Positions 23,498-59,193 of a DNA stretch of 64,000 bases are shown in pieces (the first letter of the stretch is position 1; each line of letters opens with the position of its first letter). Below the pieces are notes generated by a model. It saw nothing but the letters and a program-made list of their open reading frames with translations. It was not told the origin of the DNA and ran no database searches. Location of the stretch: the NCBI GenBank assembly GCA_039930785.1, contig JBDTTE010000001.1, positions 182-64,181 of the forward strand, in the 5' to 3' direction. The DNA comes from Betaproteobacteria bacterium (GTDB lineage Bacteria > Pseudomonadota > Gammaproteobacteria > Burkholderiales > JACQAP01). A program made the translations under genes and the position numbers.

Positions 23498-27014
<3,517 letters not shown>

Positions 27015-27120: not shown

Positions 27121-27182
27121 GTGGATGAATTGTGGATGAATTCCGGTTCCGGACGATTCATGAAGTTATTAACAATTCATCC
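27121..27182. promoter_or_regulatory. DnaA-box-like repeat cluster in the dnaA-dnaN intergenic region
   Basis: Perfect tandem 11-mer GTGGATGAATT occurs twice (27121-27131 and 27132-27142). TGTGGATGA (27131-27139) matches the TGTGGATAA consensus at 8 of 9 positions. An inverted GGATGAATT copy lies at 27174-27182. Confidence 0.5.
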
Positions 27183-27190
27183 CGGGCTTA

Positions 27191-28528: not shown

Positions 28529-28609
28529 CGGCGCGGGATTTTTGTGAGAGGTTGCGGCCGTGGGTGGCCCCCTGAAAGGAGCGTTGCAGTGTACCAGCAC
28601 GGGGTCGAG

Positions 28610-28618
28610 TTATCCACA
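28610..28618. promoter_or_regulatory. Perfect DnaA box (TTATCCACA) upstream of dnaA
   Basis: Exact 9-mer TTATCCACA read at 28610-28618, about 80 bp upstream of the dnaA start. Confidence 0.75.
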
Positions 28619-28706
28619 GCGTTGTCAGGCGAAATCTAGCGGATCGCAGCACGAGTAAGCACCCGGTCCGGGTTGGCATCGCACAGTAATGTTTGGCTCG
28701 GAAGAA

Positions 28707-28736
28707 TTGACAACCATGCGGGAAAAAGCGTGTAAT
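28707..28736 (+). promoter_or_regulatory. Putative sigma70 promoter of rpmH-rnpA
   Basis: TTGACA (28707-28712), 18-nt spacer, TGTAAT (28731-28736), about 40 bp upstream of the rpmH ATG. Confidence 0.45.
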
Positions 28737-28774
28737 ACCGCGCTTTTTCCGCCAGTTATCGGAGCCTGATTGCC

Positions 28775-28909
28775 ATGAAGCGCACATACCAACCCTCCAA
28801 AACGCGCCGCGCGCGTACGCATGGTTTCCTCGAGCGCATGAAAACCCGGGGTGGCCGTGCCGTCATCAACGCCCGCCGCGCCAAGGGGCGTGCACGTCTG
28901 GCAGTCTGA
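28775..28909 (+). CDS. rpmH: 50S ribosomal protein L34
   Basis: Manual translation gives [44 protein letters not shown] (44 aa). It is too short for the ORF track. Shows the classic rpmH-rnpA-yidD-yidC synteny. Confidence 0.97.
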
Positions 28910-28947
28910 AGTCGCCTGCGCGTAACCGTTTTCCTCGCCAAGCGAGG

Positions 28948-29253
28948 TTGTCGGGACGCGTGCATTTCACTGGTGCGTTTACTTCGAGACGGCAGGGAAA
29001 ATATCTTGTCGTCCTGGGTAGAAGTAACGTGAATACCGGCCCGGCCCGATTGGGTATCGTAGTCGGCAGACATACCGCCCCGCGATCAGTAACGCGTACC
29101 CTGATGAAGCGCACCATTCGAGAAGTTTTTCGGCAGTTGCGCTCCCAGCTTGGTTCGTTCGATGTTGTCGTTAGAGTCCGCCAATCCGCGGCAAGGGTTG
29201 AATTGCCAGCGGTCCGTCACGAACTGGAAAAACTGCTGCGAGAAACTTGCTGA
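28948..29253 (+). CDS. rnpA: Ribonuclease P protein component
   Basis: 101-aa ORF from a TTG start. The in-frame upstream sequence encodes FPRQARL, the conserved RnpA N-terminal motif, so the true start is probably upstream (CTG at 28906). Confidence 0.85.
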
Positions 29254-29462
29254 TGCGGGCCACGCTGCTAGTCCTGATCCGGTTTTACCAGTTTCTGCTG
29301 AGCCCCTGGGTGGGAGGCGGCTGTCGCTTTCATCCGACTTGCTCCGAGTACGCGAAGGGCGCGATCGGGAGACATGGGGCGGGACGCGGAAGCTGGCTGG
29401 CGACGTTGCGGATCCTTAAGTGCCATCCCTGGCATCCGGGTGGAATCGACCCGGTGCCGTGA
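29247..29462 (+). CDS. yidD: Membrane protein insertion efficiency factor YidD
   Basis: 71-aa ORF with [26 protein letters not shown]...[16 protein letters not shown]. Confidence 0.93.
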
Positions 29463-29478
29463 AACAAGAATAGAGTCG

Positions 29479-44674: not shown

Positions 44675-44702
44675 AAAGGCGGCCGCGTGCCGCCTTTTTT
44701 GT
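44675..44702 (+). terminator. Rho-independent terminator of the atp operon
   Basis: The stem aaaggcggc / gccgccttt has a cgcgt loop and is followed by a T-run, 20 nt after the atpC stop. Confidence 0.85.
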
Positions 44703-44730: not shown

Positions 44731-44759
44731 TTGACAACCCCGTACCGGCTCAATAGGCT
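44731..44759 (+). promoter_or_regulatory. Putative sigma70 promoter of the ABC/M20/MdcDE/MatB operon
   Basis: TTGACA (44731-44736), 17-nt spacer, TAGGCT (44754-44759), about 60 bp upstream of the binding-protein ATG. Confidence 0.4.
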
Positions 44760-44820
44760 CATGTCTGCCCGATCATTCCCGTCGAACGCCGAGAAAATCA
44801 CCTGCAACGCGAGGTTCGCA

Positions 44821-45981
44821 ATGTCCCGTACCGAAAAAATACTGGCCTCTGTACTTCTGCTCGCGCTGTCGTGTTCTCCAGCATTCTCCAAAGAAACGGT
44901 GAAGCTCGTCTTCATCGGTCCGCTGACCGGCGGTGTGTCCGCCAACGGCCTGGGCGGACGCAATTCCGCCGACCTCGCAGTAAAACTGCGCAATGCCGAC
45001 GCGAACGCGAAATACACCTACGAACTGGTCGTGCTGGATGACGAATGCAAGCCGAACATCGGCGTGCAAGTCGCGACCAAAGCCGCGGCGGATCGCAAGA
45101 TCGTCGCCGGCGTAACGCACTATTGCTCGGCAGTCGCGATGGGCGCGATCGATGTCTATCACCGCTTCGGCTTGCCGGTCATCGTCTGGGGGGCGGTGCT
45201 CCCCGACATTACCTACGCGAACGACTACAAGGAAGTCCACCGCGTCAACGGCACCATGATCAACCAGAACGAAGTCGCCGCCGAGTTCATGACGGGGTTG
45301 AAGTACAAGAAGTGGGTTGTCATCCACGACACCACGGACTACGGCAAGGGCCACAACAAATACTTTTCCGCCGATCTGCAGAAGCGCGGCGGAACGATAC
45401 TCGGAACCTTCGGCGTCACGGCGGACCAGCAGGACTTCAATGCCGAGCTCACCAAGATCAAGGAACTCAAGCCGGAGGTCATCTACTTCGGCGGACTTAC
45501 GCCGATCGGCGTGCGCATTCGTTCGCAGATGGACAAGCTCGGCATCACCGCAGCGTTTCAGGGCACGTCCGGCATCGTGTCCGACGCCTTCATTGAAGGC
45601 CTCGGCCCGCTCGCCGAAGGCACGCTGGCTTTTCGGGAAGGCGCGCCTGCAGAGAAACTGCCAGGGGGCAAATTTTTTCTCGAGCAATACCAGAAACAAA
45701 ATTACGCAGAAGGGCCCGAGGCCTATGGTGCATTCGCCTATGCTGCAGCGAGCCTGATCATGGATACGGTCGAGAAGGTAGGGCCGGACCGCCAGAAAGT
45801 CATGGCCGAACTCGGGACGGTGAAAGACCACCAATCGATCGTCGGCAAGGTCACGTTCGACGACCATGGCCAGAACATGGTGCCGCTGATCACCAAATTT
45901 GTCGTTCAGGACGGCAAGTGGGTGGTCTGGGAAGATAGCGAATACGCGAAGGGCAAACGCAAGCTGCCACGCGCCCCGTAA
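44821..45981 (+). CDS. ABC transporter periplasmic substrate-binding protein, LivK/LivJ (type I PBP) family
   Basis: ORF track start is 44731. The likely start is the ATG at 44821 (MSRTEKILASVLLLALSCSPAFS signal peptide). Shows a Leu/Ile/Val-binding-protein family pattern. Confidence 0.88.
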   Translation: MSRTEKILASVLLLALSCSPAFSKETVKLVFIGPLTGGVSANGLGGRNSADLAVKLRNADANAKYTYELVVLDDECKPNIGVQVATKAAADRKIVAGVTHYCSAVAMGAIDVYHRFGLPVIVWGAVLPDITYANDYKEVHRVNGTMINQNEVAAEFMTGLKYKKWVVIHDTTDYGKGHNKYFSADLQKRGGTILGTFGVTADQQDFNAELTKIKELKPEVIYFGGLTPIGVRIRSQMDKLGITAAFQGTSGIVSDAFIEGLGPLAEGTLAFREGAPAEKLPGGKFFLEQYQKQNYAEGPEAYGAFAYAAASLIMDTVEKVGPDRQKVMAELGTVKDHQSIVGKVTFDDHGQNMVPLITKFVVQDGKWVVWEDSEYAKGKRKLPRAP

Positions 45982-46007
45982 AGCAACCGGTTCCGGATTC
46001 GTCTGAC

Positions 46008-46925
46008 ATGGACATCGGCGTTGCCGGGCAATACGTCCTGAACGGTTTGATGCTGGGCGTGATCTACGCAATGGTCGCGGTCGGCTTCACGTTGTTCTTC
46101 GGCGTCCTGGACGTCATCAAGTTTTCGCATGGCGACGTGGTAATGGTTGGCGCCTTTGTTGCGCTCGCGGTCTTCGCCGGCCTGCACACCGCTGGAATCT
46201 CCTCCCCCCTGATTCTTCTGCTGGCCGCCACCGTCGCGGCATTTGCTGCCATGGCGGCACTCGGAGCGCTGATTGCCCGGTTTCTGGTATTGCCGCTGCG
46301 CAAAGCGCCAGCGCTGAATACGCTGCTGATGACCCTGATGCTGGGCCTGGCGCTACGCGAAGCCGTTCGGCTGTTCTATCCGAACGGCTCCAATCCGAAA
46401 CCGTTTCCGCGACTACTGCCCGCGGATGCCTACGCATTCGGCAGTTTCACCCTGCGCCTCGATAGCCTGATCCTCCTCGTCGGCGGTGTGCTGGCCATTG
46501 TGGTCGTGCACCTGACCATCAACCGCACCCGACTGGGCCTGGCGATCCGCGCGGTCGCGCAGGATCCGGAAACCGCGCGCGTGATGGGCGTGAACTTCGA
46601 ACGCACGGTCATGATCACGTTCGGCATCGGCTCTGCGCTGGCGGCACTGGCGGGCATCACAGACGGGCTCTACTACAACGAGGTCAACTTCGGCATGGGT
46701 CTGCTGCTCGGCGTGATCGGCTTCAGCGCGGCGGTGGTGGGCGGCCTTGGTAACATCTACGGCGCAATCCTCGGCGGGTTCCTCTTCGCTGCGCTGCAGA
46801 CTGTCGGAGCAATCTGGTTCTCGGTGCCGGCTTACAAGGATGTTTTCGCGTTCGCCACAGTGATCCTGCTGATGGCGTGGAAGCCGACCGGCCCCATAGC
46901 CGAGCGAACGGCGGAGCGGGTATAG
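46008..46925 (+). CDS. ABC transporter permease, LivH family
   Basis: 305-aa polytopic ORF with QYVLNGLMLGVIYAMVAVGFTLFFGV. Confidence 0.9.
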   Translation: MDIGVAGQYVLNGLMLGVIYAMVAVGFTLFFGVLDVIKFSHGDVVMVGAFVALAVFAGLHTAGISSPLILLLAATVAAFAAMAALGALIARFLVLPLRKAPALNTLLMTLMLGLALREAVRLFYPNGSNPKPFPRLLPADAYAFGSFTLRLDSLILLVGGVLAIVVVHLTINRTRLGLAIRAVAQDPETARVMGVNFERTVMITFGIGSALAALAGITDGLYYNEVNFGMGLLLGVIGFSAAVVGGLGNIYGAILGGFLFAALQTVGAIWFSVPAYKDVFAFATVILLMAWKPTGPIAERTAERV

Positions 46926-46927
46926 GC

Positions 46928-48085
46928 ATGCGCGCCGAAACCACGTCACGATTGATCGTCGTTCTCGGTATCGCATTGTGTGCGCTGGCTGGCTGGCTGT
47001 TCCTCGACGTCGAATCCCAATGGAAGGTCGTGCTGCTCGCCGGCGTTGTCATTGCGACATTGCTAGTGGCAGAGCGAGCGGGATGGCGACAGCGCTTCGA
47101 AACCGCGTCATCCGAAAACGGGATACTGGCTTCCACGCTTGCGCTCGTTGCCGTCGCCCTCATCGCCGCCGTCCTGCACGAATCCCATTTCGCGCTGCTG
47201 ATGCTGGCGACAGTCGCGTTGTACGCCACCGCCTGTCTTGGCCTGACCATCCAGTTCGGCTATGCCGGCATCGCGAATTTCGCGGGCGCTGCGTTTTTCG
47301 GAATCGGTTGCTATACCGCTGCGATGCTGGGCACGCACACGTCCCTGCCGCACTTGCTGAATGTGCTCGCCGGTGGGGCGATGGCAGCGCTAATTGGCTC
47401 GATATTGATCCTGCCGATCCTGCGCACGCGTGGACATTACGCCGCATTGATCACCATCGCGTTCGGCATCCTGTTCAAGACGTTTCTCGAGGTCAACGAC
47501 ACGCTCGGTGGCCCGCAGGGGTTGAAAGTCCCGGGCATGAAGATCCTGGGCTGGTCGTTCAACGATCCCATCCACTTGCCCGGCGGCGTCGAGGCTTCGT
47601 TCTATCTGAACTACGTTGTGCTGGCCGTCGCGCTCGCATTCGCCGCTTACGTGCTGGTCAAGCGCCTCGAATCTTCCTGGATCGGATTGAGCTTCGACGC
47701 GCTGCGCCTCGACGAGACTGCTGCCGCCGTCTCCGGCATCGACATCGCGAAGTGGAAGATCCTCGCTTTCGTTCTGGGCAACTTCCTGGCTGGCACCGCC
47801 GGTGCGGTGTACGCGATGATGAGCGGGTTCATCGCGCCGAACAGTTTCACGTTCGGTGACTCGCTGATCCTGGTGTCGATCGTCATCCTCGGCGGCGTTG
47901 GCAATCCACTTGGCGTCATCCCGGCTTGCCTGTTGCTGCTGGTGCTGCCGGAAAAGCTCCAGGCGATCCAGGAATACCGTTTCCTGATTTACGCGCTGCT
48001 CGTGATCCTGATCCTGCTGTTCCGGCCTGACGGGCTGTTGCCGCGGCGCATGCGTAAGTATTCTCCCCCGCGGGTGGGTACGTGA
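46928..48085 (+). CDS. ABC transporter permease, LivM family
   Basis: ORF track start is 46877. The likely start is the ATG at 46928, directly after the LivH-like stop. Polytopic, with the GYAGIANFAGAAFFGIGCY pattern. Confidence 0.88.
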   Translation: MRAETTSRLIVVLGIALCALAGWLFLDVESQWKVVLLAGVVIATLLVAERAGWRQRFETASSENGILASTLALVAVALIAAVLHESHFALLMLATVALYATACLGLTIQFGYAGIANFAGAAFFGIGCYTAAMLGTHTSLPHLLNVLAGGAMAALIGSILILPILRTRGHYAALITIAFGILFKTFLEVNDTLGGPQGLKVPGMKILGWSFNDPIHLPGGVEASFYLNYVVLAVALAFAAYVLVKRLESSWIGLSFDALRLDETAAAVSGIDIAKWKILAFVLGNFLAGTAGAVYAMMSGFIAPNSFTFGDSLILVSIVILGGVGNPLGVIPACLLLLVLPEKLQAIQEYRFLIYALLVILILLFRPDGLLPRRMRKYSPPRVGT

Positions 48086-48855
48086 CCCCGATTCTCGCGG
48101 CGCAGGGATTGACCGTTCGCTTCGGCGGCCTGACTGCGCTGGATGCATTCGATCTGCAGTTGCATGCGCAGGAAATACTGGGGCTGATCGGGCCGAACGG
48201 CTCTGGCAAGACTACATTTTTCAACGCACTGACCGGCTTGTATCGCACAGCCGCAGGAAGTGTTCGTGTCGACGGCGCCGATCTCACCGGCGCGACACCG
48301 CAAGCGATCAGTCGTGCAGGAATGGCGCGTACGTTCCAGCGCTCACGCCTGTGCCTGCCGCTGTCCGTGTTCGACAATCTGATGATCGGCAATCACCGCA
48401 ATCTGGACCATGGACTGGTAGCGAACCTGTTCCAGCGCGGTGCGCTGCTGCGCCAGGTCGAGGAATGGACGATCAAGGCGGGCGACCTGCTGCGCATGTT
48501 CAGCGCGCCGCTTGCGGATCGGTTGCAGGATCCGGTGGCTTCGCTCTCGATGATCGACCGCAGGCGTATCGAAGTCTGCCGCGCATTGATTTCCGATCCG
48601 CGCATCCTGCTGCTCGACGAACCGTCCGCCGGAATGACGCATGACGAAACGCATGAACTGATGGACGACCTGCTGGCGATCAGGGACAAGCTGCCTTCGC
48701 TTGCCGTCATCCTGATCGAGCACGAAATGAACGTGATCGAACGGGTCACGGATCGATGTGTGGTGCTGAACTATGGACGCAAGATCAGCGAAGGCGTCTA
48801 TCGGGTCGTTGCCGCCGATGAAAACGTGCGCAAGGCCTATCTCGGTGAAGACTGA
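48082..48855 (+). CDS. ABC transporter ATP-binding protein, LivG family
   Basis: 257-aa ORF with Walker A GPNGSGKTT and Walker B LLLDEPSAGM. Confidence 0.92.
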   Translation: MTPILAAQGLTVRFGGLTALDAFDLQLHAQEILGLIGPNGSGKTTFFNALTGLYRTAAGSVRVDGADLTGATPQAISRAGMARTFQRSRLCLPLSVFDNLMIGNHRNLDHGLVANLFQRGALLRQVEEWTIKAGDLLRMFSAPLADRLQDPVASLSMIDRRRIEVCRALISDPRILLLDEPSAGMTHDETHELMDDLLAIRDKLPSLAVILIEHEMNVIERVTDRCVVLNYGRKISEGVYRVVAADENVRKAYLGED

Positions 48856-48856
48856 C

Positions 48857-49588
48857 ATGGCCGGATTGCGCAAGGGTAGTGGCCTGGTGCTGGAGAACCT
48901 GCGCGTGGGTTACGACCAGGCCGACGTTCTCACCGGCGTTTCGCTCGAGGTCAGGCCCGGCGAGATCACCTGCATCCTCGGCGCAAACGGAGCCGGCAAA
49001 ACCACGCTGATCCGAGCCATCCTGGCGTTAACGTCGCCACGTAGCGGCCGCGTCCTGCACGACGGCGAAGACATCACGTCACTGCCCACGCATCGCATTG
49101 CCGGTCGCGGTATCGCCTGCATTCCCGAGGGCCGGCGGATTTTTCCGCGCATGAGCGTGCGCGAGAATCTGCTGATCGGCGCGTACCTGGATCGAAGCGC
49201 GGACCTGCCGGCAAGAATGTCGGAAGTGTTCGAAACCTTTCCCCGGCTCAGGGAGCGGGCCGGCCAGCTTGCGGGTACCATGTCCGGAGGAGAGCAGGCC
49301 ATGTTGTCGATCGGTCGCGGACTGATGGCGGCACCGCGCGTCCTGATTATCGATGAACCGTCTCTCGGATTGTCGCCGCTGTTCGTGAAGGAAAATTTCA
49401 ACGTCATCCGCCGCATCAACGAGGCCGGCGTGACGATCCTGCTGGTGGAGCAGAACGTGAAACAGACGCTCGCCATTGCGCATCGCGGATACGTTCTGTC
49501 GCAGGGCAAGGTCACCGCGGAAGGCGAAGCCGCAGCGTTGCGGGAAAACGCCGAGGTTCGTGCCGCGTACTTCGGCAAAAAGAATTAG
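48857..49588 (+). CDS. ABC transporter ATP-binding protein, LivF family
   Basis: ORF track start is 48773. The likely start is the ATG at 48857, 1 nt after the LivG-like stop. Has GANGAGKTT, the signature MSGGEQ and IIDEPSLGL. Confidence 0.92.
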   Translation: MAGLRKGSGLVLENLRVGYDQADVLTGVSLEVRPGEITCILGANGAGKTTLIRAILALTSPRSGRVLHDGEDITSLPTHRIAGRGIACIPEGRRIFPRMSVRENLLIGAYLDRSADLPARMSEVFETFPRLRERAGQLAGTMSGGEQAMLSIGRGLMAAPRVLIIDEPSLGLSPLFVKENFNVIRRINEAGVTILLVEQNVKQTLAIAHRGYVLSQGKVTAEGEAAALRENAEVRAAYFGKKN

Positions 49589-49597
49589 GAGAGCAGC

Positions 49598-50728
49598 ATG
49601 GCAGCACAGACAAACGCGCTCGAACTGACGAAGCAGATCGTGCGCATGAATACGATCAATCCACCGGGCCAGGAAGAACAATGCGCCCGCCACCTCGGCG
49701 CCCTGCTCGAAACCGCCGGCTTCCGGGTCCGTTACCACGACCTGGGCCCCAAACGCGCGAACCTGGTCGCGACCATCGGTGGCTCAGCCGATAAAGCGCC
49801 GCTGTGCTTCACCGGTCACATCGATACCGTCCCGCTGGGCGCGGCGCAATGGAAGATGGATCCATTTGCCGCGGATACGCAAGATGGCCGGTTGTATGGA
49901 CGCGGCACCAGCGACATGAAGTGCGGCGTTGCGGCTTTTGTCGTCGCGTCGTTGAATCTCGCGAATAAACTGCAACGTTCGCCCGGGCTGGAACTGGTGA
50001 TCACCGCTGGCGAGGAGACGGGTTGCGAAGGCGCCTTCCATCTCACGCACAAGAGCGGCGCACTCGGGCGCGCCGGTGCGGTTGTGGTGGGCGAGCCGTC
50101 CTCCAACTTTCCCTTTGTTGGCCACCGCGGCGCTTTCTGGTTGAATGCGCGCACGCGCGGCGTAACGGCGCACGGCTCGATGCCCGAGAAGGGCGTCAAC
50201 GCCGTGTTCAAGGCGGCGCGCGCTGTTGCCATCCTGGAAAAATTCCGCTTCACGAATCCCCCGCACCCGCTGATGGGACAGGCCACGCTGAATGTCGGCA
50301 CGATCCACGGCGGGCTGAACATCAACTCTGTACCCGACGAAGCCGTCATCGGTGTCGACATTCGTACCATTCCCGGGATCAAGCACGCTGACCTGAGGGC
50401 CGAGCTCGTGCGCCAGCTCGGCACCGACGTCGAGCTTGAGACCCTGCTCGATCTTGAGAGCGTATTCACCGAGCCCACGCATCCCTGGATCCAGGAGGTC
50501 TTCGAGATCACGCGTCCTTTCCTCAGCGAGGCGCCGCAGGCCCGGGTTGCAACGTATTTCACCGACGCGGCCGCGCTGAACGTCGCCTACGGCACGCCGC
50601 CCACCGTCATACTCGGTCCGGGCGAAGCACAGATGGCGCACCAGACCAACGAATATTGCGTGGTGGATCGCATTTCCGAGTCGGTGTCGATCTACGAGGA
50701 GATTGCGCGGCGCTGGTGCGGCATCTGA
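49598..50728 (+). CDS. M20-family metallohydrolase (ArgE/DapE/ACY1-like deacylase)
   Basis: 376-aa ORF with HIDTVP, GRGTSDMKCG and the GEETG metal-ligand pattern. Confidence 0.85.
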   Translation: MAAQTNALELTKQIVRMNTINPPGQEEQCARHLGALLETAGFRVRYHDLGPKRANLVATIGGSADKAPLCFTGHIDTVPLGAAQWKMDPFAADTQDGRLYGRGTSDMKCGVAAFVVASLNLANKLQRSPGLELVITAGEETGCEGAFHLTHKSGALGRAGAVVVGEPSSNFPFVGHRGAFWLNARTRGVTAHGSMPEKGVNAVFKAARAVAILEKFRFTNPPHPLMGQATLNVGTIHGGLNINSVPDEAVIGVDIRTIPGIKHADLRAELVRQLGTDVELETLLDLESVFTEPTHPWIQEVFEITRPFLSEAPQARVATYFTDAAALNVAYGTPPTVILGPGEAQMAHQTNEYCVVDRISESVSIYEEIARRWCGI

Positions 50729-51993
50729 TGTCCGCAGAGGCGTTTTCCGCCACGCCGCCGGCGCAAAGGATCGCCGGGCTCTTCGACGCTGGTTCGATTG
50801 TGGACCCGCAAGCGCGATCGTTGGGTTCGCTCTGCGCCGGCGATGGCGCGATCGGCGGACGTGAAGTGACGATCGTCGCGACGGATCGGCAAGTCGCCGG
50901 CGGATCGCTCGGCGTCGCCGAGGCGACGGCGTTGTGCGCACTGATGCAACACAGCCATGAAGAGCAGCGAGCGTTCATTTTCTGCCTGGATTCCGCGGGT
51001 GCGAGACTGGATGAAGGACTGCCCGCCCTGGGCGCATTTCGTCAGCTCTATCGAACAATGCTCGACCTCCGGCTCGCCGGAATGCCGCTGCTTGCACTGG
51101 TAGGCAGGGACTGCTTCGGCGGCGCTAGCATGCTCGCCGCAACTTGCGAACATCGCGTCTACAGCGAAAATTCACGACTCGCGATGTCCGGTCCCGCCGT
51201 CATCCAGGCGCTCGGGGGACGGTCCGAACTCGATGCGTCGAACATCGCTGCGGTTACTGCGCTCATGGGCGGCGCAGCGCGCCGGCAACTCAGTACCACG
51301 GACACGTTAAGCAGCGACACGATCCTTGCGTATCGCACCGCGGCGCTGGACTGGATAGGCGATCGCACGCGCGTGGACAAACCCGACCTGATCCAGCAGC
51401 ACAATCGTCTCGGCACGCGCTTGATGGTGCAAGGCATGACGCCTTCCGCGCCTGTGGACGCCGGAGATAACCTGCCATCCATGCTCCAGGAAATCATTCC
51501 ACGGGACATCCAGGTGCACCGGACGGACGGCGTGCTCGTCGCTCGAAAGGGCGAAGGTACGTCGAACGCGTTTTTCGGATTCGTGGACCGCGAACCGGTT
51601 GGCGCGCTCGCAGCCTGGACCCTTGCGGGAGAATGCCTTGCGTTCGCCGACGAACGTCCGGGGGAGGCCGTGACGATTTTTCTGGATGCGCCGGGCCAGG
51701 CGCCTACCCTGCGCGACGAGCGGGTCATTCTTTCCGAGTACGTCGCGCATCTCGCGCTCGTACTGTCTGAATTGCGCATCCGGGGACATCGCGTGACCTT
51801 GCAGGTACTGGGCGACGCCGCTGGCGGAATTTATGTCGCGCTGGCCGCGCCGGCGGTTCGCGTGGTCGCGCTGCCCGGAGCCAACGTGCAGGTACTGCCG
51901 CCGGCGGCCGTGGCGCGCGTTCTTCGAGGGCGCGATGCAGCGAGTGGCGTCGAGGACTACATGCGCGCTGGCGTCATCGATACGCTTATATGA
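50728..51993 (+). CDS. Carboxyltransferase-like protein resembling a fusion of malonate decarboxylase beta (MdcD) and gamma (MdcE) subunits
   Basis: ORF track start is 50656. The likely start is the ATG at 50728, overlapping the M20 stop (ATGA). The N-terminal half (RIAGLFDAGS...GGSLG...LDSAGARLDEG...CFGGASMLA...RLAMSGPAVI) follows the MdcD pattern as I recall it. The C-terminal half (IFLDAPGQ...RDERVILSEYVAHLA...RGHRVTLQVLGDAAGG) follows the MdcE pattern. Confidence 0.65.
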   Translation: MSAEAFSATPPAQRIAGLFDAGSIVDPQARSLGSLCAGDGAIGGREVTIVATDRQVAGGSLGVAEATALCALMQHSHEEQRAFIFCLDSAGARLDEGLPALGAFRQLYRTMLDLRLAGMPLLALVGRDCFGGASMLAATCEHRVYSENSRLAMSGPAVIQALGGRSELDASNIAAVTALMGGAARRQLSTTDTLSSDTILAYRTAALDWIGDRTRVDKPDLIQQHNRLGTRLMVQGMTPSAPVDAGDNLPSMLQEIIPRDIQVHRTDGVLVARKGEGTSNAFFGFVDREPVGALAAWTLAGECLAFADERPGEAVTIFLDAPGQAPTLRDERVILSEYVAHLALVLSELRIRGHRVTLQVLGDAAGGIYVALAAPAVRVVALPGANVQVLPPAAVARVLRGRDAASGVEDYMRAGVIDTLI

Positions 51994-53492
51994 ACAACCC
52001 CAACTTATACGCGGCGGCTTCCGCTTCGATCGAAGCGGGACGGGATCGCGTGCTGATCGAAACGGACGACGGTCGCACATTTACCGGCGCGGACTTCGAA
52101 CGCGAATCGGCACGCTTCGCGGCGCTACTGATTGCGTCCGGAGCGGTACGCGGCGATCGCATCGCGGTGCAGGTCGATAAATCGCCGGCCGCGCTGTTTT
52201 TATATCTGGGCTGCCTGCGCGCGGGACTGGTTTTTCTGCCGTTGAATACGGCGTATCAGCGCGGCGAGCTGGCTTACTTTCTGAGCGACGCGCAGCCGTC
52301 CATCATCGTCTGCCGGCCACAATCCGCGCAGATAATGCGCGAACTTGTCGAGGAAAAAGCACGGCTATTCACGCTCGATGAAAACGGCGCCGGTTCGCTC
52401 GCGGACGCGGCGTCATCGCTGCCGACGGAATTCAAAACCGCGGAATCCGCGCCCGACGACCTCGCGGTGATCCTGTATACATCGGGCACGACGGGTCGAT
52501 CCAAGGGCGCGATGGTGACCCATCACAACCTGGTTTCCAACGCGCGGGTGCTGGTAGATCGGTGGGCATTCACCGAGCGTGACGTGCTGCTGCACGCATT
52601 GCCGATTTTTCATATCCACGGGCTCTTTGTCGCCAATCACTGTGCGCTGCTGTCCGGCGCGAAAATGCTCTGGCACCGCAAGTTCGATGCAAAGCTTGTG
52701 TTGCGCGATCTGGCGCGTGCGACGGTGATGATGGGCGTGCCGACGTTCTACACGCGACTTCTGGCCGAAACCACATTCGGGCGAGAAGCCTGCGGCGACA
52801 TGCGCCTGTTCATTTCGGGTTCCGCACCCCTGTTACTAGAGACGTTCGTCGAATTCGAGCAGCGCTCGGGACGGCGCATCCTCGAGCGCTACGGCATGTC
52901 CGAATCGGGCATGATTTGTTCGAACCCGCTGGAGGGAGAACGCCGTGGCGGCAGTGTCGGCTTCCCGCTGCCGGGCGTATCCTTGCGGATCGCGGACGAG
53001 TACGACAAGCCGCTGGCGCAGGGCGACATCGGCGGCATCCAGATCAAGGGCGAGAATGTATTTGCGGGATACTGGCGCATGCCGGAAAAGACGCGCGAGG
53101 AATTCACCTCCGACGGTTTTTTTCGCACGGGCGACGTGGGCACCATCGACAGCGACGGGTATGTCAGCATTGTCGGGCGCGCCAAGGATCTCATCATCTG
53201 CGGCGGCTATAACGTCTATCCAAAGGAAATCGAACTCGCCCTCGACGCGATGCCGGGCATAGCGGAATCCGCCGTCATCGGCGTGCCCCACGCGGATTTC
53301 GGCGAAGCAGTCGCCGCAGTTGTGGTCGCGAGGAAAGACGCAAAACTCGATGCCGATGCCATCGTTGCCGAACTGAAAAAGAACTTTGCGAATTACAAGG
53401 TGCCGAAGCGTTTGTACGTGGTGGACGATCTGCCGCGCAATGCGATGGGCAAGGTACAGAAGGTGCTGCTGCGCGAGCGTTATGGGAAATAA
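51990..53492 (+). CDS. matB: Malonyl-CoA synthetase-like AMP-dependent ligase (MatB family)
   Basis: 500-aa ORF, with its ATG overlapping the upstream stop (ATGA). Has the AMP-binding motif YTSGTTGRSKGA. The block DRIAVQVDKSPAALFLYLGCLRAGLVFLPLNTAY closely resembles rhizobial MatB as I recall it. Confidence 0.7.
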   Translation: MNNPNLYAAASASIEAGRDRVLIETDDGRTFTGADFERESARFAALLIASGAVRGDRIAVQVDKSPAALFLYLGCLRAGLVFLPLNTAYQRGELAYFLSDAQPSIIVCRPQSAQIMRELVEEKARLFTLDENGAGSLADAASSLPTEFKTAESAPDDLAVILYTSGTTGRSKGAMVTHHNLVSNARVLVDRWAFTERDVLLHALPIFHIHGLFVANHCALLSGAKMLWHRKFDAKLVLRDLARATVMMGVPTFYTRLLAETTFGREACGDMRLFISGSAPLLLETFVEFEQRSGRRILERYGMSESGMICSNPLEGERRGGSVGFPLPGVSLRIADEYDKPLAQGDIGGIQIKGENVFAGYWRMPEKTREEFTSDGFFRTGDVGTIDSDGYVSIVGRAKDLIICGGYNVYPKEIELALDAMPGIAESAVIGVPHADFGEAVAAVVVARKDAKLDADAIVAELKKNFANYKVPKRLYVVDDLPRNAMGKVQKVLLRERYGK

Positions 53493-53526: not shown

Positions 53527-54378
53527 ATGGATTGGGGAGGCGGCAGGCGCAGCGAGAACGTTGAAGACCGGCGCGGCATCGGCGTGGGTGGCATCGCCGG
53601 CGGCGGTATCGGTGTCGTGGTCATTGCGCTCATCGCGATGTTCCTCGGCGTGGATCCGCGGGTAGTCCTGCAGGAAATGGGACAAGGACAAACGCAGGCG
53701 CCGACAGAACATGCGGTGCCGGTCGATCCGGCGCAGGACAAACTCAAGGACTTCGTGTCGGTCGTGCTGGCCGACACCGAGGATACCTGGGGCGAAATAT
53801 TCAGTCGCGGCGGTTCGCAGTACGAAAAGCCGAAACTGGTGCTGTTTACCGGCGCGGTACGCTCGGCGTGCGGACTGGCGCAATCCGCGGTCGGTCCGTT
53901 TTATTGTCCCGGCGACCACAAGGTCTACATCGACCTCGATTTCTACAATCTGCTGGAGAAGCGCTTCGGCGCGCCCGGCGAATTCGCCAAAGCTTATGTC
54001 GTGGCCCATGAAATCGGCCACCATGTGCAGAATCTCCTCGGCATTTCCGCCAAGGTCCAAACTGCGATGCAGCGTGCCACCCCCGAGCGGGCGAATCAGT
54101 TGTCCGTGCGAATGGAGTTACAGGCGGATTGCTATGCGGGGATCTGGGCCAACCATGCCAATCGATCGCGCCACATCCTGCAGTCGGGTGACATCGAATC
54201 CGGTTTGAACGCGGCGGCCGCCATCGGCGACGACAAATTGCAAATGCAGTCGCGGGGCTATGTCTCGCCGGAAAGTTTCACGCATGGCACGTCGGCGCAA
54301 CGCGTGCAATGGTTCAAGCGCGGGCTCGAATCCGGTGAATTGTCGGCCTGCGACACGTTCAAGGCCGGACAGGCCTGA
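53527..54378 (+). CDS. ypfJ: YpfJ-family putative neutral zinc metallopeptidase
   Basis: 283-aa ORF with an N-terminal RRSENVEDRRG, one TM helix and an HEIGHH zinc motif. Confidence 0.85.
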   Translation: MDWGGGRRSENVEDRRGIGVGGIAGGGIGVVVIALIAMFLGVDPRVVLQEMGQGQTQAPTEHAVPVDPAQDKLKDFVSVVLADTEDTWGEIFSRGGSQYEKPKLVLFTGAVRSACGLAQSAVGPFYCPGDHKVYIDLDFYNLLEKRFGAPGEFAKAYVVAHEIGHHVQNLLGISAKVQTAMQRATPERANQLSVRMELQADCYAGIWANHANRSRHILQSGDIESGLNAAAAIGDDKLQMQSRGYVSPESFTHGTSAQRVQWFKRGLESGELSACDTFKAGQA

Positions 54379-54385
54379 GCCGCAG

Positions 54386-55195
54386 TCAGAGCGAGGACGA
54401 GAACAGCGACCACAGCATGCGGGTCGCCAGGATGAAGAGGATCACCGCGAAAATCTTCGTGAGCCGCGTGACCGGCATGCTGTGCGCCATCCGCGCGCCC
54501 CAGGGCACGGTGATGAAGGTCCCCACCACGATGCCCACGAGCGCGGGCAGGTAAACATAACCCAGGCTCAGCGGTGGCAGGTGATCTTTGCCCAGCCCGG
54601 TGGCGATGAAGCCGATGGAACCTGCAATCGCGATCGGCAGACCGAGGGCTGCGGATGTGCCGATGGCATTGCGCATCGGCACGTTGCACATCGTCATCAG
54701 CGGAATGGTCATGACGCCGCCACCGACGCCGACCAGCGCGGAGAGGATGCCAATAATCACACCCGCCACATTCATGCCCCATTTGCCCGGAAGCTGGCGC
54801 GATGGTTTCGGCTTGGTGTTCATCAGCATTTTCGCCGCGGAGTAATAGACGAAAATCACGAAAAACACAGCGAGGTAGCTCGACTTCAGGGAATCCGCAA
54901 CAACGGCGCCGAGCAATGTGCCGGCGACCAGCCCCACCGAAGACGCGCGCACGATGTCCCAGCGCACTGCGCCATGTTTATGATGTGCACGCAGGCTCGA
55001 TATCGAAGTGAAGACGATGCTGGTAATGGACGTGCCGAGTGCCAGATGGAGCAAGCGATCGGCGGGGAAGCCCTGCAGGTTGAACAGATACACCATCAGG
55101 GTGACGAGGATCAGGCCGCCACCGATGCCGAGCAGGCCGGCAAAATAGCCTACGAACAACCCCATCAGCAGATAAACGAGCCACCACCATTCCAT
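54386..55195 (-). CDS. TauE/SafE-family (DUF81) membrane protein, second paralog
   Basis: 269-aa polytopic ORF with GLLGIGGGLILV and GVGGGVMTIPLM repeats. Confidence 0.82.
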   Translation of the reverse strand: MEWWWLVYLLMGLFVGYFAGLLGIGGGLILVTLMVYLFNLQGFPADRLLHLALGTSITSIVFTSISSLRAHHKHGAVRWDIVRASSVGLVAGTLLGAVVADSLKSSYLAVFFVIFVYYSAAKMLMNTKPKPSRQLPGKWGMNVAGVIIGILSALVGVGGGVMTIPLMTMCNVPMRNAIGTSAALGLPIAIAGSIGFIATGLGKDHLPPLSLGYVYLPALVGIVVGTFITVPWGARMAHSMPVTRLTKIFAVILFILATRMLWSLFSSSL

Positions 55196-55207
55196 GGAGG
55201 CGCCCGC

Positions 55208-55663
55208 CTAGAGCAACTTCAGGATGAATTCCGCTTCATGCGCATCCACCGGTGTGATCGACAGGCGGTTGCCGCGCTGGAGCACGCGCATGGAAGCGAG
55301 TTGGGCGTGGGACTTCAACTCCGGCAGTCCGAGCACCCTGGTTTTTTTGACGAACGTAACGTCGACGTTGAACCAGCGGGGATTGTCGCGAGAAGCCTTG
55401 GGGTCGAAGTATTCGCTTTTGCGTTCGAACTGGGTTTCATCGGGATGGGCCAGTTTCGAAACCTTCGCGATACCGGCGATGCCCGGTTCCGGGCAGCTGG
55501 AGTGATAAAAAAATACGCCGTCCCCAACCGCCATCTGGTCGCGCATGAAATTGCGCGCCTGGTAGTTGCGCACGCCCCACCATGGCGCTGTCTTGCGCGG
55601 TGCCTTGGCGAGATCGTCGATGCCGAAAACATCGGGTTCGGATTTCATCAACCAGTAGTTCAT
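55208..55663 (-). CDS. EVE (PUA-like) domain protein
   Basis: 151-aa ORF with MNYWLMKSEPDVF...WWGVRNYQARNFMRD...GDGVFFYHS. Confidence 0.85.
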   Translation of the reverse strand: MNYWLMKSEPDVFGIDDLAKAPRKTAPWWGVRNYQARNFMRDQMAVGDGVFFYHSSCPEPGIAGIAKVSKLAHPDETQFERKSEYFDPKASRDNPRWFNVDVTFVKKTRVLGLPELKSHAQLASMRVLQRGNRLSITPVDAHEAEFILKLL

Positions 55664-55675
55664 GATCCGCTGTGC

Positions 55676-55706
55676 AAAAAAAAGAGTTCCGGACCGCCGG
55701 AACTCT
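55676..55706 (-). terminator. Rho-independent terminator downstream of the 6S RNA
   Basis: The minus-strand RNA has the stem agagttccgg / ccggaactct with a 4-nt loop, followed by an 8-U run (plus-strand A-run at 55676-55683). Confidence 0.8.
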
Positions 55707-55761
55707 ATCGGATTATCGACTCGCGCGCGAAGGCCCGTCGATCGATCCGTTTTATTTCAGT

Positions 55762-55942
55762 TGGGGTGCCCCCCGCGCTTCTCCGTCAGACCGAATCTTG
55801 AACCTGAGTTCAAGGCGGTCGCTTTCCGAGCACATCAGGCGCTTCCGCAGAGGGACGCGCACAACAGCGCTACATTAGGCAGCAACCAGGGTATACAACA
55901 TTGGCTCAAAGAATTACAGCCTGACGAATCACGCAGGGGACA
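55762..55942 (-). ncRNA. ssrS: 6S RNA
   Basis: Lies immediately downstream of zapA on the same strand (conserved zapA-ssrS synteny) and is about 180 nt long. The 5' CCCCUGCG...CGUCAGGC pairs with the 3' GUCUGACG...CGCGGGGG to form the closing stem. GAGCC on the 5' side and the CCUUGAACUCAGGUUCAAG hairpin on the 3' side mirror E. coli 6S elements (CCUGAGCC; CCUUGAACCAAGGGUUCAAGG). Ends are approximate. Confidence 0.75.
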
Positions 55943-55952
55943 TTGACTCGCG

Positions 55953-56273
55953 TCAGAACAATTCATCCTGACCGTTGATGGCCTGGTCGATGACTGCCTG
56001 CATGTCAAAGATTCTACGCTTAAACTCACCCACATCAAATCCGCCGTCCACGCGCGTGGAGAGGAATTCGTGCGCGATGTTGAGCGCCGCCATGATGGCG
56101 ATGCGCTCGACGCCGACGACTTTTCCGGCATCGCGGATCTCGCGCATTTTTTCGTTGAGGTAGTCGACGGCTTTCTGCAATTCCTGCTTGTCGTCCTCGA
56201 CGCAGGCGATGCGGAATTCGCGCCCCATGATGTTTACATCGAGGCCGCCAGCCTTGGCTGTCTGATTACTCAT
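55953..56273 (-). CDS. zapA: Cell division protein ZapA
   Basis: 106-aa ORF with VNIMGREFRIACVEDDKQELQKAVDYLNEKMREI...RIAIMAALNIAHEF. Confidence 0.9.
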   Translation of the reverse strand: MSNQTAKAGGLDVNIMGREFRIACVEDDKQELQKAVDYLNEKMREIRDAGKVVGVERIAIMAALNIAHEFLSTRVDGGFDVGEFKRRIFDMQAVIDQAINGQDELF

Positions 56274-56469: not shown

Positions 56470-56635
56470 GGGTACACTATAATTACGAAAAGTGTGGAAA
56501 GTCAACTGCTAACGCATATTTTTGAATGTATTTTGGCACATATACGGCGAGATGCTGAGAAGTTTCTGCTCGGCCCTGGCAATCCTTGCCATCGCCCAAG
56601 AAATCCGGCCGGCCCGGCCGATCCGGTAGAATCGG

Positions 56636-56862
56636 CCAACGTTCTCGGGTGCCCCGACCAATTTCTTTGGCGGGGTCAAACGGGAAACAGGTGCGTGCCG
56701 GGCGGTTCCAGTCATCGCCACGGCACAATTCCTGTGCTGCCCCCGCAACGGTAAGCGACTACGGGGTGCGCCACTAAGCCACTGTGCGGTTTGGCCAGGT
56801 CATCGGCAAACGCATGGGAAGGCGGCGTACCTCAAAACGCAAGCCCGGATACCGGCCCATTG
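56636..56862 (+). promoter_or_regulatory. Cobalamin (B12) riboswitch
   Basis: Read directly: GGUGCCCC...AAACGGGAAACAGGUG...CAAUUCC..GCUGCCCCCGCAACGGUAA...GCCACUG...GGGAAGGC...AAGCCCGGAUACCGGCC (B12-box-like). These follow the conserved cobalamin aptamer order, upstream of a TonB-dependent receptor. Confidence 0.8.
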
Positions 56863-56994
56863 GACGCGAACGGAGATTCCGCGCGGGGCGGGGCATCCGG
56901 TGTCGGCGTGTCCTTCACCAGCCTTTTCCTTCGTTGAACTCCCTTTTTAGAACTCGCGCCTGCGGCGGGCTTGCGCAAACAGGGAGTAGTAGTC

Positions 56995-59082
56995 ATGAAA
57001 TTGGGATCATATGTACTACTGGTCGGGCTCGTGGCCGGAGCCAGCGCTTACGCACAGTCCAACCCTGATCTTGTTGCGAATGAAGTCGTCGTGACAGCAA
57101 CAAGATTCGAAGATACCTCCGCCGACAAACCCCTCAACATCACCGTCATTACTTCAGACGACATCCGTCGATCCCCTGCGCGAACCGTGCCGGAACTCCT
57201 GTCCTATCAGGCCGGCGTCGGTGGCCGCGACCTCTTCGGCAACAACGCATCGCAGGCGACGGTCGATATAAGAGGGTTCGGCGCGACCGCTGCGCAAAAT
57301 ACCCTCGTGCTGCTCGACGGCAGAAAAATGAACGATATTGACCTGTCGGGGGTTCAATGGTCTGCCTTACCTCTGGATTCGATCGAGCGCATAGAAATCA
57401 TTCGTGGTAGCGGCGCCGTCCAATATGGCGACGGAGCCGTTGGCGGCGTCATCAATATCATTACACGCAGGCCGGGCAAGGACGGCCCGCAGGCGACGAT
57501 CGCCGCAGGTATCGGAAGTTTCGACACCTTCCAGACACGCGCGAGTGGCGAATTGGGAAACGACACCGTGGGATTACGTATCGCGGGGGCGTACTACGAT
57601 TCCCAGGGCTATCGTGACAACAATCGCGACATTCAATCGACCGCCTCAGCGGAAGGACGCTGGAATGCTCCGATCGGAGACATCTCACTACGCTTTGCAG
57701 GTGCTAGTGAGAACCTCCGGCTACCGGGAGCACGGACAATTCAACCAAGCATTGGTCTTGACGAACTTGAGACCGATCGTAAGGGGACGTCGACGCCAAA
57801 GGACTACGCGCTCAGAGACGACAATGTATTGCAGCTCGATTGGTCACGCTCGGATGGTGCAATTTCCGAGGTAGTGGGGGTCTCTTACCGCAAAAAAGAA
57901 CAAAAGTCCTATTTCGACTTCAACGGATTCCCCGACTACCGTGAGATCGACCTCGATGTCCTCGCCCTGACGCCGCGAATGCGCATTGATCATTCGGAAC
58001 TCGGGGTGAACGGAAACCTCGTGTTGGGATTCGACTGGTACACGTGGAATTATGACCTCGCGCTGTCCGCGTCGCCGACTACGATCGCCCAGCCCGTGCA
58101 CAAGGTCGACGCCCGCCAGGAAAACCGGGCGATCTATATCCTCGAATCGCTAAAGCCGGCAACCGGCACGACGCTTACCGCCGGGGCTCGTGTCGAGTGG
58201 TTCACTATCAATGCCAACGACACCTTCGACGCAACCGCGCCCAACCCGACTTTCATAAATGGCGGATCGCCGAGCGGAGACCAGAATGACCGGCAATTTG
58301 CCTGGGAACTCGGCCTGAGACAGGCATTGACCGAGCAATGGTCGGCCTTTAGCCGCGCGACGCGGGCCTACCGGTTTGCGACTGTGGATGAGACCTACGA
58401 GAGCACCGCACTGTTCGAGCAGTCGTTCCAGTTTCTGCGGCCGCAAACGTCCATCACGTACGAGGTTGGCGTCGACTGGCGGGTAGCAGCTGCGGACGCG
58501 CGTGTCGGCATCTTTCAGACCGATGTGAAGGACGAAATCCATTTGGACGCCTTCACTTCAGGCGTGGGTAACACGAATCTTCCGCCCTCCCGGCGCCGCG
58601 GCATCGAACTCGAATTGGGTGTGCAACCTGCGGAACGGGTGGACCTGAGATTTACTTACACTTATACGGATCCCAAGTTCAGGGACGGTGAATTTCCAGG
58701 CGGCCCTTTTTCCACCACCAACGTGAACATTTCCGGTAAGACGGTACCGCTGGTGCCGCGGCACAAGGCGACGTTCAACGCAAATTGGGGCATCACACCG
58801 TCGCTGAATCTATCGGGAGCGGTGGTCTATGTAAGCGAACAATTCATGGATAACGACGAGGCGAACGATCTTGGCGTGAAGATTCCCGCATACACCGTCG
58901 TCGACCTCAAGCTAGCGCAGCAGATAGGCGCCGCGCGCTTCGGCGTCGCGATCAACAATGCACTCGGCGAAAAGTACTATAACTACGCGGTTCGTTCGCA
59001 GTTCACTCCCGACCGTTATAACGTGTATCCACTCCCCGAACGTACGTTCATGGCATTCGTGGAATACAAGTTCGGCAAGTAA
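56995..59082 (+). CDS. TonB-dependent outer-membrane receptor, likely corrinoid (BtuB-like) given the riboswitch
   Basis: ORF track start is 56971. The likely start is the ATG at 56995, after the AGGGAG SD (MKLGSYVLLVGLVAGASAYA signal peptide). Has a plug domain (VVVTATRFED...) and a C-terminal aromatic beta-barrel end (YKF). Confidence 0.9.
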   Translation: MKLGSYVLLVGLVAGASAYAQSNPDLVANEVVVTATRFEDTSADKPLNITVITSDDIRRSPARTVPELLSYQAGVGGRDLFGNNASQATVDIRGFGATAAQNTLVLLDGRKMNDIDLSGVQWSALPLDSIERIEIIRGSGAVQYGDGAVGGVINIITRRPGKDGPQATIAAGIGSFDTFQTRASGELGNDTVGLRIAGAYYDSQGYRDNNRDIQSTASAEGRWNAPIGDISLRFAGASENLRLPGARTIQPSIGLDELETDRKGTSTPKDYALRDDNVLQLDWSRSDGAISEVVGVSYRKKEQKSYFDFNGFPDYREIDLDVLALTPRMRIDHSELGVNGNLVLGFDWYTWNYDLALSASPTTIAQPVHKVDARQENRAIYILESLKPATGTTLTAGARVEWFTINANDTFDATAPNPTFINGGSPSGDQNDRQFAWELGLRQALTEQWSAFSRATRAYRFATVDETYESTALFEQSFQFLRPQTSITYEVGVDWRVAAADARVGIFQTDVKDEIHLDAFTSGVGNTNLPPSRRRGIELELGVQPAERVDLRFTYTYTDPKFRDGEFPGGPFSTTNVNISGKTVPLVPRHKATFNANWGITPSLNLSGAVVYVSEQFMDNDEANDLGVKIPAYTVVDLKLAQQIGAARFGVAINNALGEKYYNYAVRSQFTPDRYNVYPLPERTFMAFVEYKFGK

Positions 59083-59193
59083 CAGGCCGTGATCCCGGGG
59101 AGACTCGCCTGCGCGGGTGTCCCCGGCCGCATCGTCCCATGCCCCGGGGCGGTCTCCTGTCCGTCGTCGCCGGGATTTGTTATCGTGCGGGCC

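Follow-up and report, generated by a model that had tools for sequence, protein, structure and literature searches.

A probable malonate operon in a betaproteobacterial metagenome, with a candidate MdcD/MdcE-derived decarboxylase in the place of MatA

How would malonyl-CoA be decarboxylated in a gene cluster where a MatB-type ligase adjoins a single protein built from MdcD-like and MdcE-like halves? Textbooks give bacteria two malonate routes, MatAB and the acyl carrier protein (ACP)-dependent Mdc complex. The cluster in question lies in a 64-kb window (the whole stretch of DNA analyzed here) of a 66-kb contig from a metagenome-assembled genome (MAG) labelled "Betaproteobacteria bacterium". 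Between positions 44821 and 53492, eight close-packed genes on the plus strand encode a Liv-type ABC importer, an M20 metallohydrolase, the MdcD/MdcE-like fusion protein and MatB (Table 1). Gene families were assigned by Pfam and NCBIfam, and all eight genes were found on that strand with the families that an earlier note on this DNA had given them.

We consider this locus to be, probably, a MatB-type operon for malonate catabolism. In it, an unrelated single-chain descendant of MdcD and MdcE would have replaced the MCD-family decarboxylase MatA, and an importer and the M20 hydrolase are encoded upstream. MatB, by orthology, would convert malonate, ATP and CoA into malonyl-CoA, and the fusion protein would then decarboxylate malonyl-CoA to acetyl-CoA and CO2 without the ACP MdcC, without MdcA and without biotin. 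Taken together, these two steps are the most economical reading of the data, and we regard them as quite likely. Further upstream, the Liv-type system would import a malonate-containing amide that the M20 enzyme cleaves to malonate and an amine or amino acid, a step suggested by gene order only and put forward tentatively. A literature search gave no description of this gene combination, the likeliest comparative study lying outside its coverage; the earlier note had likewise thought the combination undescribed.

The ligase and the two-domain fusion protein

That the ligase is a true MatB, as first proposed from the sequence, is borne out by several comparisons. Besides its family score (Table 1), it contains Pfam AMP-binding (8e-81) and AMP-binding_C (2.6e-16) domains, matches R. 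palustris MatB (PDB 4fuq) over its full length (E = 1.3e-166) and is 58–59% identical to Sinorhizobium MatB (58% for the MatB of S. meliloti, which is part of the matPQMAB type of cluster, defined by genetics; PMC5237526).

The neighboring fusion protein resembles MdcD in its N half (8e-36) and MdcE in its C half (6e-28) in NCBIfam comparisons, its match to the Pfam MdcE model covering positions 3–114 of 196 only. MdcD is its top-scoring curated family (123.7 bits), with MdcE at 97.9 and MmdA at 56.6 bits (2e-15). AccD (31.9 bits) and AccA (16.1 bits), whose outscoring of MdcD and MdcE the earlier note had named as grounds for abandoning its proposal, came far lower, and the protein belongs to none of the biotin-dependent carboxyltransferase families (AccA/AccD, PccB, 12S, MmdA). 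When a profile of 40 family members was compared with solved structures, the N domain likewise scored higher against MdcD (5vip_B, 107.9 bits) than against 12S transcarboxylase (84.1 bits). The AlphaFold2 model (pLDDT 91.9) has two domains in a double crotonase-like carboxyltransferase fold. Foldseek against the PDB placed PccB and AccD6 chains on top at a global TM of only ~0.44, and could not part MdcD/E from PccB-type enzymes, single-chain two-domain targets outranking half-length chains.

Several residues of the presumptive active site are retained. The oxyanion-hole residues of MdcD, Val121 and Gly162 (PMC5534430), align with Ala92 and Gly132 of the fusion protein, and Gly91, Gly131 and Gly132 are invariant among the 40 family members. 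Also invariant is Arg185, the counterpart of the Arg in the MdcD "GGEQR" motif and an Ala in 12S transcarboxylase, while Gln100 of MdcE corresponds to Gln324, a position held by Gln or His throughout the family. For catalysis the fusion protein would use the backbone-amide oxyanion hole kept from MdcD. Canonical MdcD-MdcE decarboxylates malonyl-CoA in vitro without ACP (kcat 2.3 per second, K0.5 100 uM; PMC5534430).

These proteins form a family of their own, with ~90 clusters at the 50% identity level (E < 1e-30), nearly all from soil, sediment and rhizosphere metagenomes of Burkholderiales-like character. NCBI names the three enzymes of the locus "M20 family metallopeptidase", "biotin-independent malonate decarboxylase subunit gamma" and "malonyl-CoA synthase". 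The fusion family is misnamed in databases, as "malonate decarboxylase subunit gamma" or "acetyl-CoA carboxylase subunit", and no curated model covers it. A scan of genome contigs with the single fusion protein returned only an unrelated match of 26% identity in Bizionia, and tblastn against PLSDB plasmids found canonical mdcD/mdcE loci only; the top PLSDB match lies in Cupriavidus sp. P-10, where the sizes and order of the open reading frames (ORFs), the only evidence used, point to a probable classical mdc cluster whose D and E genes are separate.

Gene order across related loci

A metagenome scan with an 11-sequence family profile yielded 80 loci, which were surveyed by tblastn with the window proteins and a few neighbors from one related locus (L003). 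In this gene-neighborhood survey, the gene next to the fusion gene on its 5′ side encodes M20 in 58/60 loci with that side visible, at a gap of −1 to +30 nt in 56 of those 58, and matB lies immediately downstream in 46/47. The order M20-fusion-MatB persists while the fusion protein falls to 38% identity; across related loci identities range over 67–89% for M20, 58–78% for MatB and 71–90% for the binding protein. The window's gene order was found again in more than 20 related loci, and its recurrence is far above chance. Rates are uneven, as in L008–L087, where the fusion protein is at 38–45% identity, M20 at 67–72%, MatB at 58–68% and the binding protein at 71–80%. The metagenomic loci share one chromosomal slot, running from atpC through M20-fusion-MatB to TauE and EVE.

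Three arrangements outside this slot bear on the function of the fusion protein. In L090, genes for the binding protein, LivHMGF, M20 and the fusion protein occur together in another context, after genes for DsrE, a rhodanese-HTH protein and a fatty-acid hydroxylase; the binding protein is 76% and the fusion protein 31% identical to that of the window. At the contig end of L090 the fusion gene is followed by an unassigned truncated ORF. Two further lineages encode the fusion protein and MatB as a single polypeptide, and the ligase parts of the two proteins reach 711 and 715 bits with the MatB model and 54–57% identity to the window's MatB. One of these proteins (P0317, WP_083439307.1, 899 aa) comes from the cultured Herbaspirillum autotrophicum (GCA_001189915.1); the other (P0313, L094:7140-10820, 939 aa) comes from a methylotroph-like bin, and its fusion to MatB may have arisen independently. 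The H. autotrophicum gene (L093:8001-10700) is annotated only as "AMP-binding protein". The P0313 gene adjoins an alpha/beta hydrolase gene, and its bin holds genes of methylotrophy and the tetrahydromethanopterin (H4MPT) pathway (Fae, 4HFCP synthase).

The Herbaspirillum fused gene sits between a divergent GntR/FCD regulator gene and dctPQM, a dicarboxylate-type TRAP transporter, and this layout mirrors those of rhizobia, matR-matABC and matPQMAB (PMC5237526), so that the MdcDE-like domain stands in the place of MatA. Because the operon's binding protein, importer, M20 and fusion genes are found relocated as in L090, because MatB is fused to the decarboxylase-like protein in two lineages and because the H. 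autotrophicum domain occupies a MatA-like position, an ACP-independent decarboxylase role is the most economical reading. The earlier proposal that MatB activates malonate and that the fusion protein decarboxylates malonyl-CoA is favored by MatB orthology, by adjacency, by the two fusions and by the Herbaspirillum placement.

Absences point the same way within their scope. The earlier note's observation that mdcA/B/C/G/H, matA and matC are missing held for the window's larger ORFs scanned with Pfam. No Mdc holoenzyme genes occur among those ORFs, the 80 metagenomic loci having been probed only with the window proteins, and no mdcA/B/C/G/H, biotin-carrier or biotin-carboxylase genes were found among the annotated genes around the relatives looked up singly. 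Nor were biotin-carrier or biotin-carboxylase genes found nearby in the window, and the scanned operon and window proteins gave no match to an MCD-family (MatA) domain.

The M20 hydrolase, the importer and a possible source of malonate

The M20 protein belongs to the ArgE/DapE family by its Peptidase_M20 (1e-29) and M20_dimer (1.8e-19) domains as well as by its family score (Table 1), and its translation holds the metal-ligand and catalytic motifs GHIDTV, GTSDMK, GEETG, VGEPS and AHQTNE. DapE and ArgE are its nearest solved relatives. It falls short of the equivalog models for either (PRK08588, 247 vs 289 bits; TIGR01892, 204 vs 298 bits; others likewise below). A homologue search with it brought up members of the window's own syntenic group only, each ≥74% identical.

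The importer has the five-component architecture of LIV-I/HAAT systems, a Peripla_BP_6 protein with two BPD_transp_2 permeases and two ATPases, and misses every Liv equivalog or subfamily cut-off (138 vs 477 bits for the binding protein), so that these models do not assign it amino-acid specificity. The nearest solved structures of the binding protein are Leu/Ile/Val- and amino-acid-binding proteins (1e-25 to 1e-28). Compared with LivJ, it has Ser250 for Glu226, Val126 for Thr102 and Leu226 for Tyr202; the LivJ-226 position is Glu or Asp in 5/5 aligned amino-acid binders. We take Glu226 of LivJ to be the acidic residue that pairs with the α-ammonium group of the ligand.

Three considerations favor import and cleavage of a conjugate. 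M20 tracks importers of the amino-acid or peptide type (Liv or Dpp) and is absent beside the dicarboxylate-type TRAP transporter; the acidic residue typical of amino-acid binders is replaced in the binding protein; and the M20 family includes the desuccinylase DapE. Among plant conjugates, malonyl-ACC and the N-malonyl-D-amino acids exemplify the N-malonyl amino acids that would be likely substrates. In its boldest form, which we think doubtful, the operon would be dedicated to scavenging N-malonyl amino-acid conjugates, with the importer retuned to N-acylated ligands and the M20 enzyme the first bacterial "demalonylase". It is just as doubtful a further part of that proposal that the malonate so released is burnt through MatB and a previously unrecognized family of ACP- and biotin-independent single-chain decarboxylases.

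The transporter is the variable part of the syntenic slot, being Liv-type in ~22 loci, of the Dpp/Opp type and transcribed divergently in ~13, and absent in ~14, where M20 directly follows atpC. The binding protein of the Dpp-type alternative resembles only an uncharacterized structure (8vdx), GsiB and AgaA. LivF-like fragments (37–42% identity, ~110 aa) stand upstream of M20, after atpC or dppA, in L011, L021 and L045, loci without the Liv genes. These short remnants suggest that the Liv arrangement was ancestral and that the transporter was later lost or replaced in these loci.

A number of findings weigh against the reading of the operon as a malonate pathway with an MdcD/MdcE-derived decarboxylase. 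The fusion protein misses the cut-offs of both parent families (MdcD: NF005530, 123.7 vs 228 bits, and TIGR03133, 109.1 vs 278 bits; MdcE: TIGR03134, 97.9 vs 237 bits), and "MdcDE fusion", the earlier note's name for it, therefore stands as a label of ancestry and fold and falls as one of family membership. It is ~130 residues shorter than MdcD and MdcE together, diverges faster than its neighbors (38–74% identity vs 67–89% for M20) and has an invariant Gly366 throughout its family in place of MdcE Ser142, whose change to Ala costs about tenfold in activity (PMC5534430). Nearly all loci are syntenic, so much of the co-occurrence could be vertical inheritance, and in part it reflects inheritance rather than selection. 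The transporter is swappable or missing between loci; M20 is kept without an adjacent importer in ~14 loci and is itself missing in 2–3. Plasmid homologues of M20 at ~50% identity occur in unrelated contexts that give no clue to a substrate: beside hydantoinase A/B and amidohydrolase genes in Variovorax RA8, glutamine amidotransferase and phosphotriesterase-like genes in Pantoea, and a ring-hydroxylating dioxygenase gene in Variovorax SRS16. Finally, mdc or matA genes may lie outside the 66-kb contig.

A paralogous clade adds two further points of this kind. In L088 (5124–14196, from a marine/freshwater MAG), a fusion protein of 30% identity (P0179) is encoded in the order benzoate-CoA-ligase-family gene (TIGR02262, 808 bits), binding protein, fusion, LivHMGF, alpha/beta hydrolase and SDR, with no M20. 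Because this clade pairs with a benzoate-CoA-ligase-family gene, the fusion family is not uniformly malonate-specific, and the pairing suggests that members also decarboxylate other carboxy-acyl-CoAs. Because P0179 sits in a Liv-type operon without M20, Liv-type importers can partner the fusion family directly, which counts against the conjugate step in particular.

The strongest competitor to the proposed pathway, which we nonetheless consider unlikely, is that two modules share one transcript, the fusion protein and MatB using or clearing free malonate, and M20 and the importer processing a nutrient unrelated to it, either an N-acyl amino acid or a peptide-like compound. The malonate would then be endogenous, or else enter through the Liv system or some transporter whose gene lies elsewhere. 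That the enzymes stay while the transporter varies or vanishes, that the Herbaspirillum- and methylotroph-type clusters manage without M20, that ~50% M20 homologues live in other contexts and that the M20-containing loci, all but one, form a single syntenic lineage would all fit such a split, and binding proteins of the Peripla_BP_6 family can bind organic acids. Against it, M20 abuts the fusion gene across deep divergence (the −1 to +30 nt gap above), it outlasts the loss of the importer (as the LivF relics of L011 and L045 indicate), the unit has moved as a whole to a new context in L090, and M20 is absent exactly where a dicarboxylate-type importer stands beside the enzymes.

Improbable, in our view, is the possibility that the substrate is methylmalonate or another alkylmalonate, MatB making (methyl)malonyl-CoA and the fusion protein yielding propionyl-CoA or another acyl-CoA. 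R. palustris MatB, the closest solved relative of the ligase, is said to use methylmalonate as well; methylmalonyl-CoA decarboxylase alpha (MmdA) is the second-best curated match of the fusion protein's N domain; and the fusion family is diverse, with one clade that has a different ligase partner. Opposed to this are the ligase's score well over the malonyl-CoA synthase cut-off, its identity to S. meliloti MatB and a Herbaspirillum context that copies malonate clusters.

Most improbable is that the fusion protein is the decarboxylase part of an ACP-dependent Mdc complex, or the carboxyltransferase of a biotin enzyme, with its other subunits elsewhere in the genome: its NCBI name, the biotin-dependent carboxyltransferase beta subunits at the head of the Foldseek ranking and a genome seen only as one 66-kb contig, of which 64 kb was examined, leave room for this, but no mdcA/B/C/G/H, biotin-carrier or biotin-carboxylase gene was found in the window or among the called genes of the annotated loci, the MdcD and MdcE cut-offs are missed with AccA/AccD scores far lower, and an enzyme physically joined to a CoA ligase would naturally act on a CoA thioester. 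A biotin-dependent carboxyltransferase role and dependence on an Mdc holoenzyme were both rejected on these grounds.

Transcription unit, chromosomal setting and place among malonate systems

The operon directly follows the atp terminator, as the earlier note had reported: atpC ends at 44654, and the hairpin with its T run comes just after it. A terminator-like hairpin 3′ of atpC has a counterpart in all homologous loci. The TTGACA-N17-TAGGCT promoter that the note had described is present in the sequence, and a consensus promoter scanner made no call there because its −10 hexamer fits the consensus at 3/6 positions. When 11 atpC-to-binding-protein spacers were compared (ten homologous loci and the window), TTGAC(A/T)-N17-TAnnCT recurred in 8/11, counting the window, in spacers otherwise divergent. 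This amounts to a phylogenetic footprint, and we therefore take the promoter TTGACA-N17-TAnnCT, judged by its recurrence, to be real though weak by consensus. An Rfam search of the region 5′ of the operon detected neither a riboswitch nor a leader RNA.

The first gene was originally placed at 44731, a TTG inside the −35 box; ATG 44821, which is preceded by a GAGG ribosome-binding site and opens a signal-peptide sequence, is the most likely start. From gene to gene the spacing is 26, 2, −4, 1, 9, −1 and −4 nt. Among the overlaps claimed earlier, that at 51990 is a true 4-nt overlap (likewise that at 48082), 48855/48857 is instead a 1-nt gap, and 50728 is a 1-nt TGATG overlap. The ypfJ gene begins 34 nt past matB with a GGGAGAG ribosome-binding site; given this distance and the lack of an intervening terminator, its co-transcription as a ninth gene is probable. 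A single promoter right after the atp terminator would then transcribe all of the genes, probably including ypfJ, and the window's cluster contains no regulator gene. In related loci ypfJ follows matB only in some (L002, L004 and L034). Its slot is taken elsewhere by two YbjQ genes and an M48 peptidase gene, or by a 2OG-Fe(II) oxygenase gene, and in the window a convergent TauE gene ends 7 nt beyond it.

Table 1. Positions of the operon's genes and control elements in the window, with the basis for each assignment
Feature	Position	Strand	Basis
atp intrinsic terminator	44675-44697	+	9-pair GC-rich hairpin, then TTTTTTGTT (T run)
Candidate sigma-70 promoter, TTGACA-N17-TAGGCT	44732-44766	+	Direct sequence reading; TTGACA = 44732-44737
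Liv/HAAT-type periplasmic binding protein	44821-45981	+	Pfam Peripla_BP_6, 7e-42
LivH-type permease	46008-46925	+	Pfam BPD_transp_2, 5.6e-46; NCBIfam LivH and UrtB below cut-offs
LivM-type permease	46928-48085 (alternative start GTG 46877)	+	BPD_transp_2, 4e-35; NCBIfam LivM, 6e-49
LivG-type ATPase	48082-48855	+	ABC_tran and BCA_ABC_TP_C; NCBIfam LivG, 1.6e-64; 4-nt overlap with livM stop
LivF-type ATPase	48857-49588	+	ABC_tran; NCBIfam LivF, 1.4e-71
M20 metallohydrolase, ArgE/DapE deacylase family (candidate demalonylase)	49598-50728	+	TIGR01910, 243 vs cut-off 217.6 bits
421-aa MdcD-like and MdcE-like crotonase-fold fusion (proposed ACP-independent malonyl-CoA decarboxylase)	50728-51993	+	Pfam MdcE, Carboxyl_trans
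MatB, malonyl-CoA synthetase	51990-53492	+	NCBIfam PRK07514, 785.5 vs cut-off 558 bits
ypfJ, YpfJ-family neutral zinc metallopeptidase	53527-54378	+	NCBIfam NF050010, 384 vs cut-off 250 bits

The operon lies among housekeeping genes, with dnaA, dnaN, gyrB, yidC, mnmG, parAB and the atp operon upstream and TauE, EVE, zapA and 6S RNA downstream. At 23498–31131 are gyrB, dnaN and dnaA on the minus strand and yidC on the plus strand, with a G+C dip to 0.544 at 26–28 kb, so the origin region of the chromosome falls within the window and the malonate operon is close to it. On the other side of the operon, zapA (55953–56273, minus strand) is closely followed by a 6S RNA (55766–55942, minus strand, RF00013, 55.6 bits) in the classical zapA-ssrS arrangement. 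At 56631–56874 on the plus strand is a cobalamin riboswitch (Rfam RF00174, 89.8 bits), followed by a 703-aa ORF (56971–59082), whose position is held in related loci by a TonB-dependent receptor, and then by an ABC_membrane/ABC_tran gene (59089–60966); riboswitch and ORFs presumably make up a B12 uptake unit. Two long ORFs, 54260–55801 (plus strand, 513 aa) and 49784–50941 (minus strand, 385 aa), were rejected as genes, being high-GC artefacts over real opposite-strand genes.

Set beside known systems, the locus most likely combines Mat-type logic with an Mdc-derived decarboxylase freed of the ACP machinery, the decarboxylase being, by its sequence, neither MatA nor an MdcD/MdcE equivalog. MatR-MatABC of Rhizobium leguminosarum bv. 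trifolii and MatPQMAB of Sinorhizobium meliloti likewise take malonate through malonyl-CoA to acetyl-CoA and CO2 with an orthologous MatB, and the Herbaspirillum relative keeps their GntR regulator and TRAP layout. They use MatA of the MCD family, whereas the window has an unrelated double crotonase-fold protein, and they have a carrier or TRAP transporter where the window has a Liv-type ABC importer, an M20 gene and no regulator gene. With MdcABCDEGH (Klebsiella, Acinetobacter and Pseudomonas; 5vip) the window shares homologues of MdcD and MdcE, joined as the two halves of the fusion protein with the oxyanion-hole positions kept; that system uses ~550 aa of MdcD and MdcE where the window has one 421-aa chain with Gly for MdcE Ser142, and it activates malonate by ACP transfer rather than by a CoA ligase, with no MdcA/B/C/G/H near the latter.

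Two other comparisons concern single steps. DapE and ArgE, the N-succinyl-LL-diaminopimelate desuccinylase and N-acetylornithine deacetylase, share TIGR01910, the motifs and the dimerization domain with the window's M20, and DapE strips a dicarboxylic acyl group, a reaction chemically close to malonyl removal; they serve lysine and arginine biosynthesis, whereas the window's M20 misses their equivalog cut-offs and stands in a context of malonate catabolism. Mammalian ACSF3 and MLYCD clear malonate, a succinate-dehydrogenase inhibitor, in mitochondria. As in the window, a MatB-type ligase is followed there by a malonyl-CoA decarboxylase; unlike in the window, the decarboxylase (MLYCD) is of the MCD family, and neither an importer nor a deacylase takes part.

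Malonate is plentiful in legumes and rhizospheres and is the classical inhibitor of succinate dehydrogenase. Beside the two textbook routes the locus points to a third, hybrid one, in which CoA activation by MatB would be followed by a stripped-down single-chain decarboxylase of the MdcD/E type, from a family widespread in soil and sediment Burkholderiales metagenomes. Displacement of the decarboxylase is a solid and testable prediction, for which the cultured organism H. autotrophicum exists, and the demalonylase idea is the more exciting and the more speculative. In metabolic engineering, control of malonyl-CoA pools is a possible use for a malonyl-CoA decarboxylase as compact as 421 aa, and for its naturally occurring fusion to MatB. 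Malonyl-ACC still lacks an identified hydrolase (PMC4227472), and if M20 and the importer do act on N-malonyl conjugates, they would provide the first molecular handle on the microbial turnover of plant malonyl conjugates.

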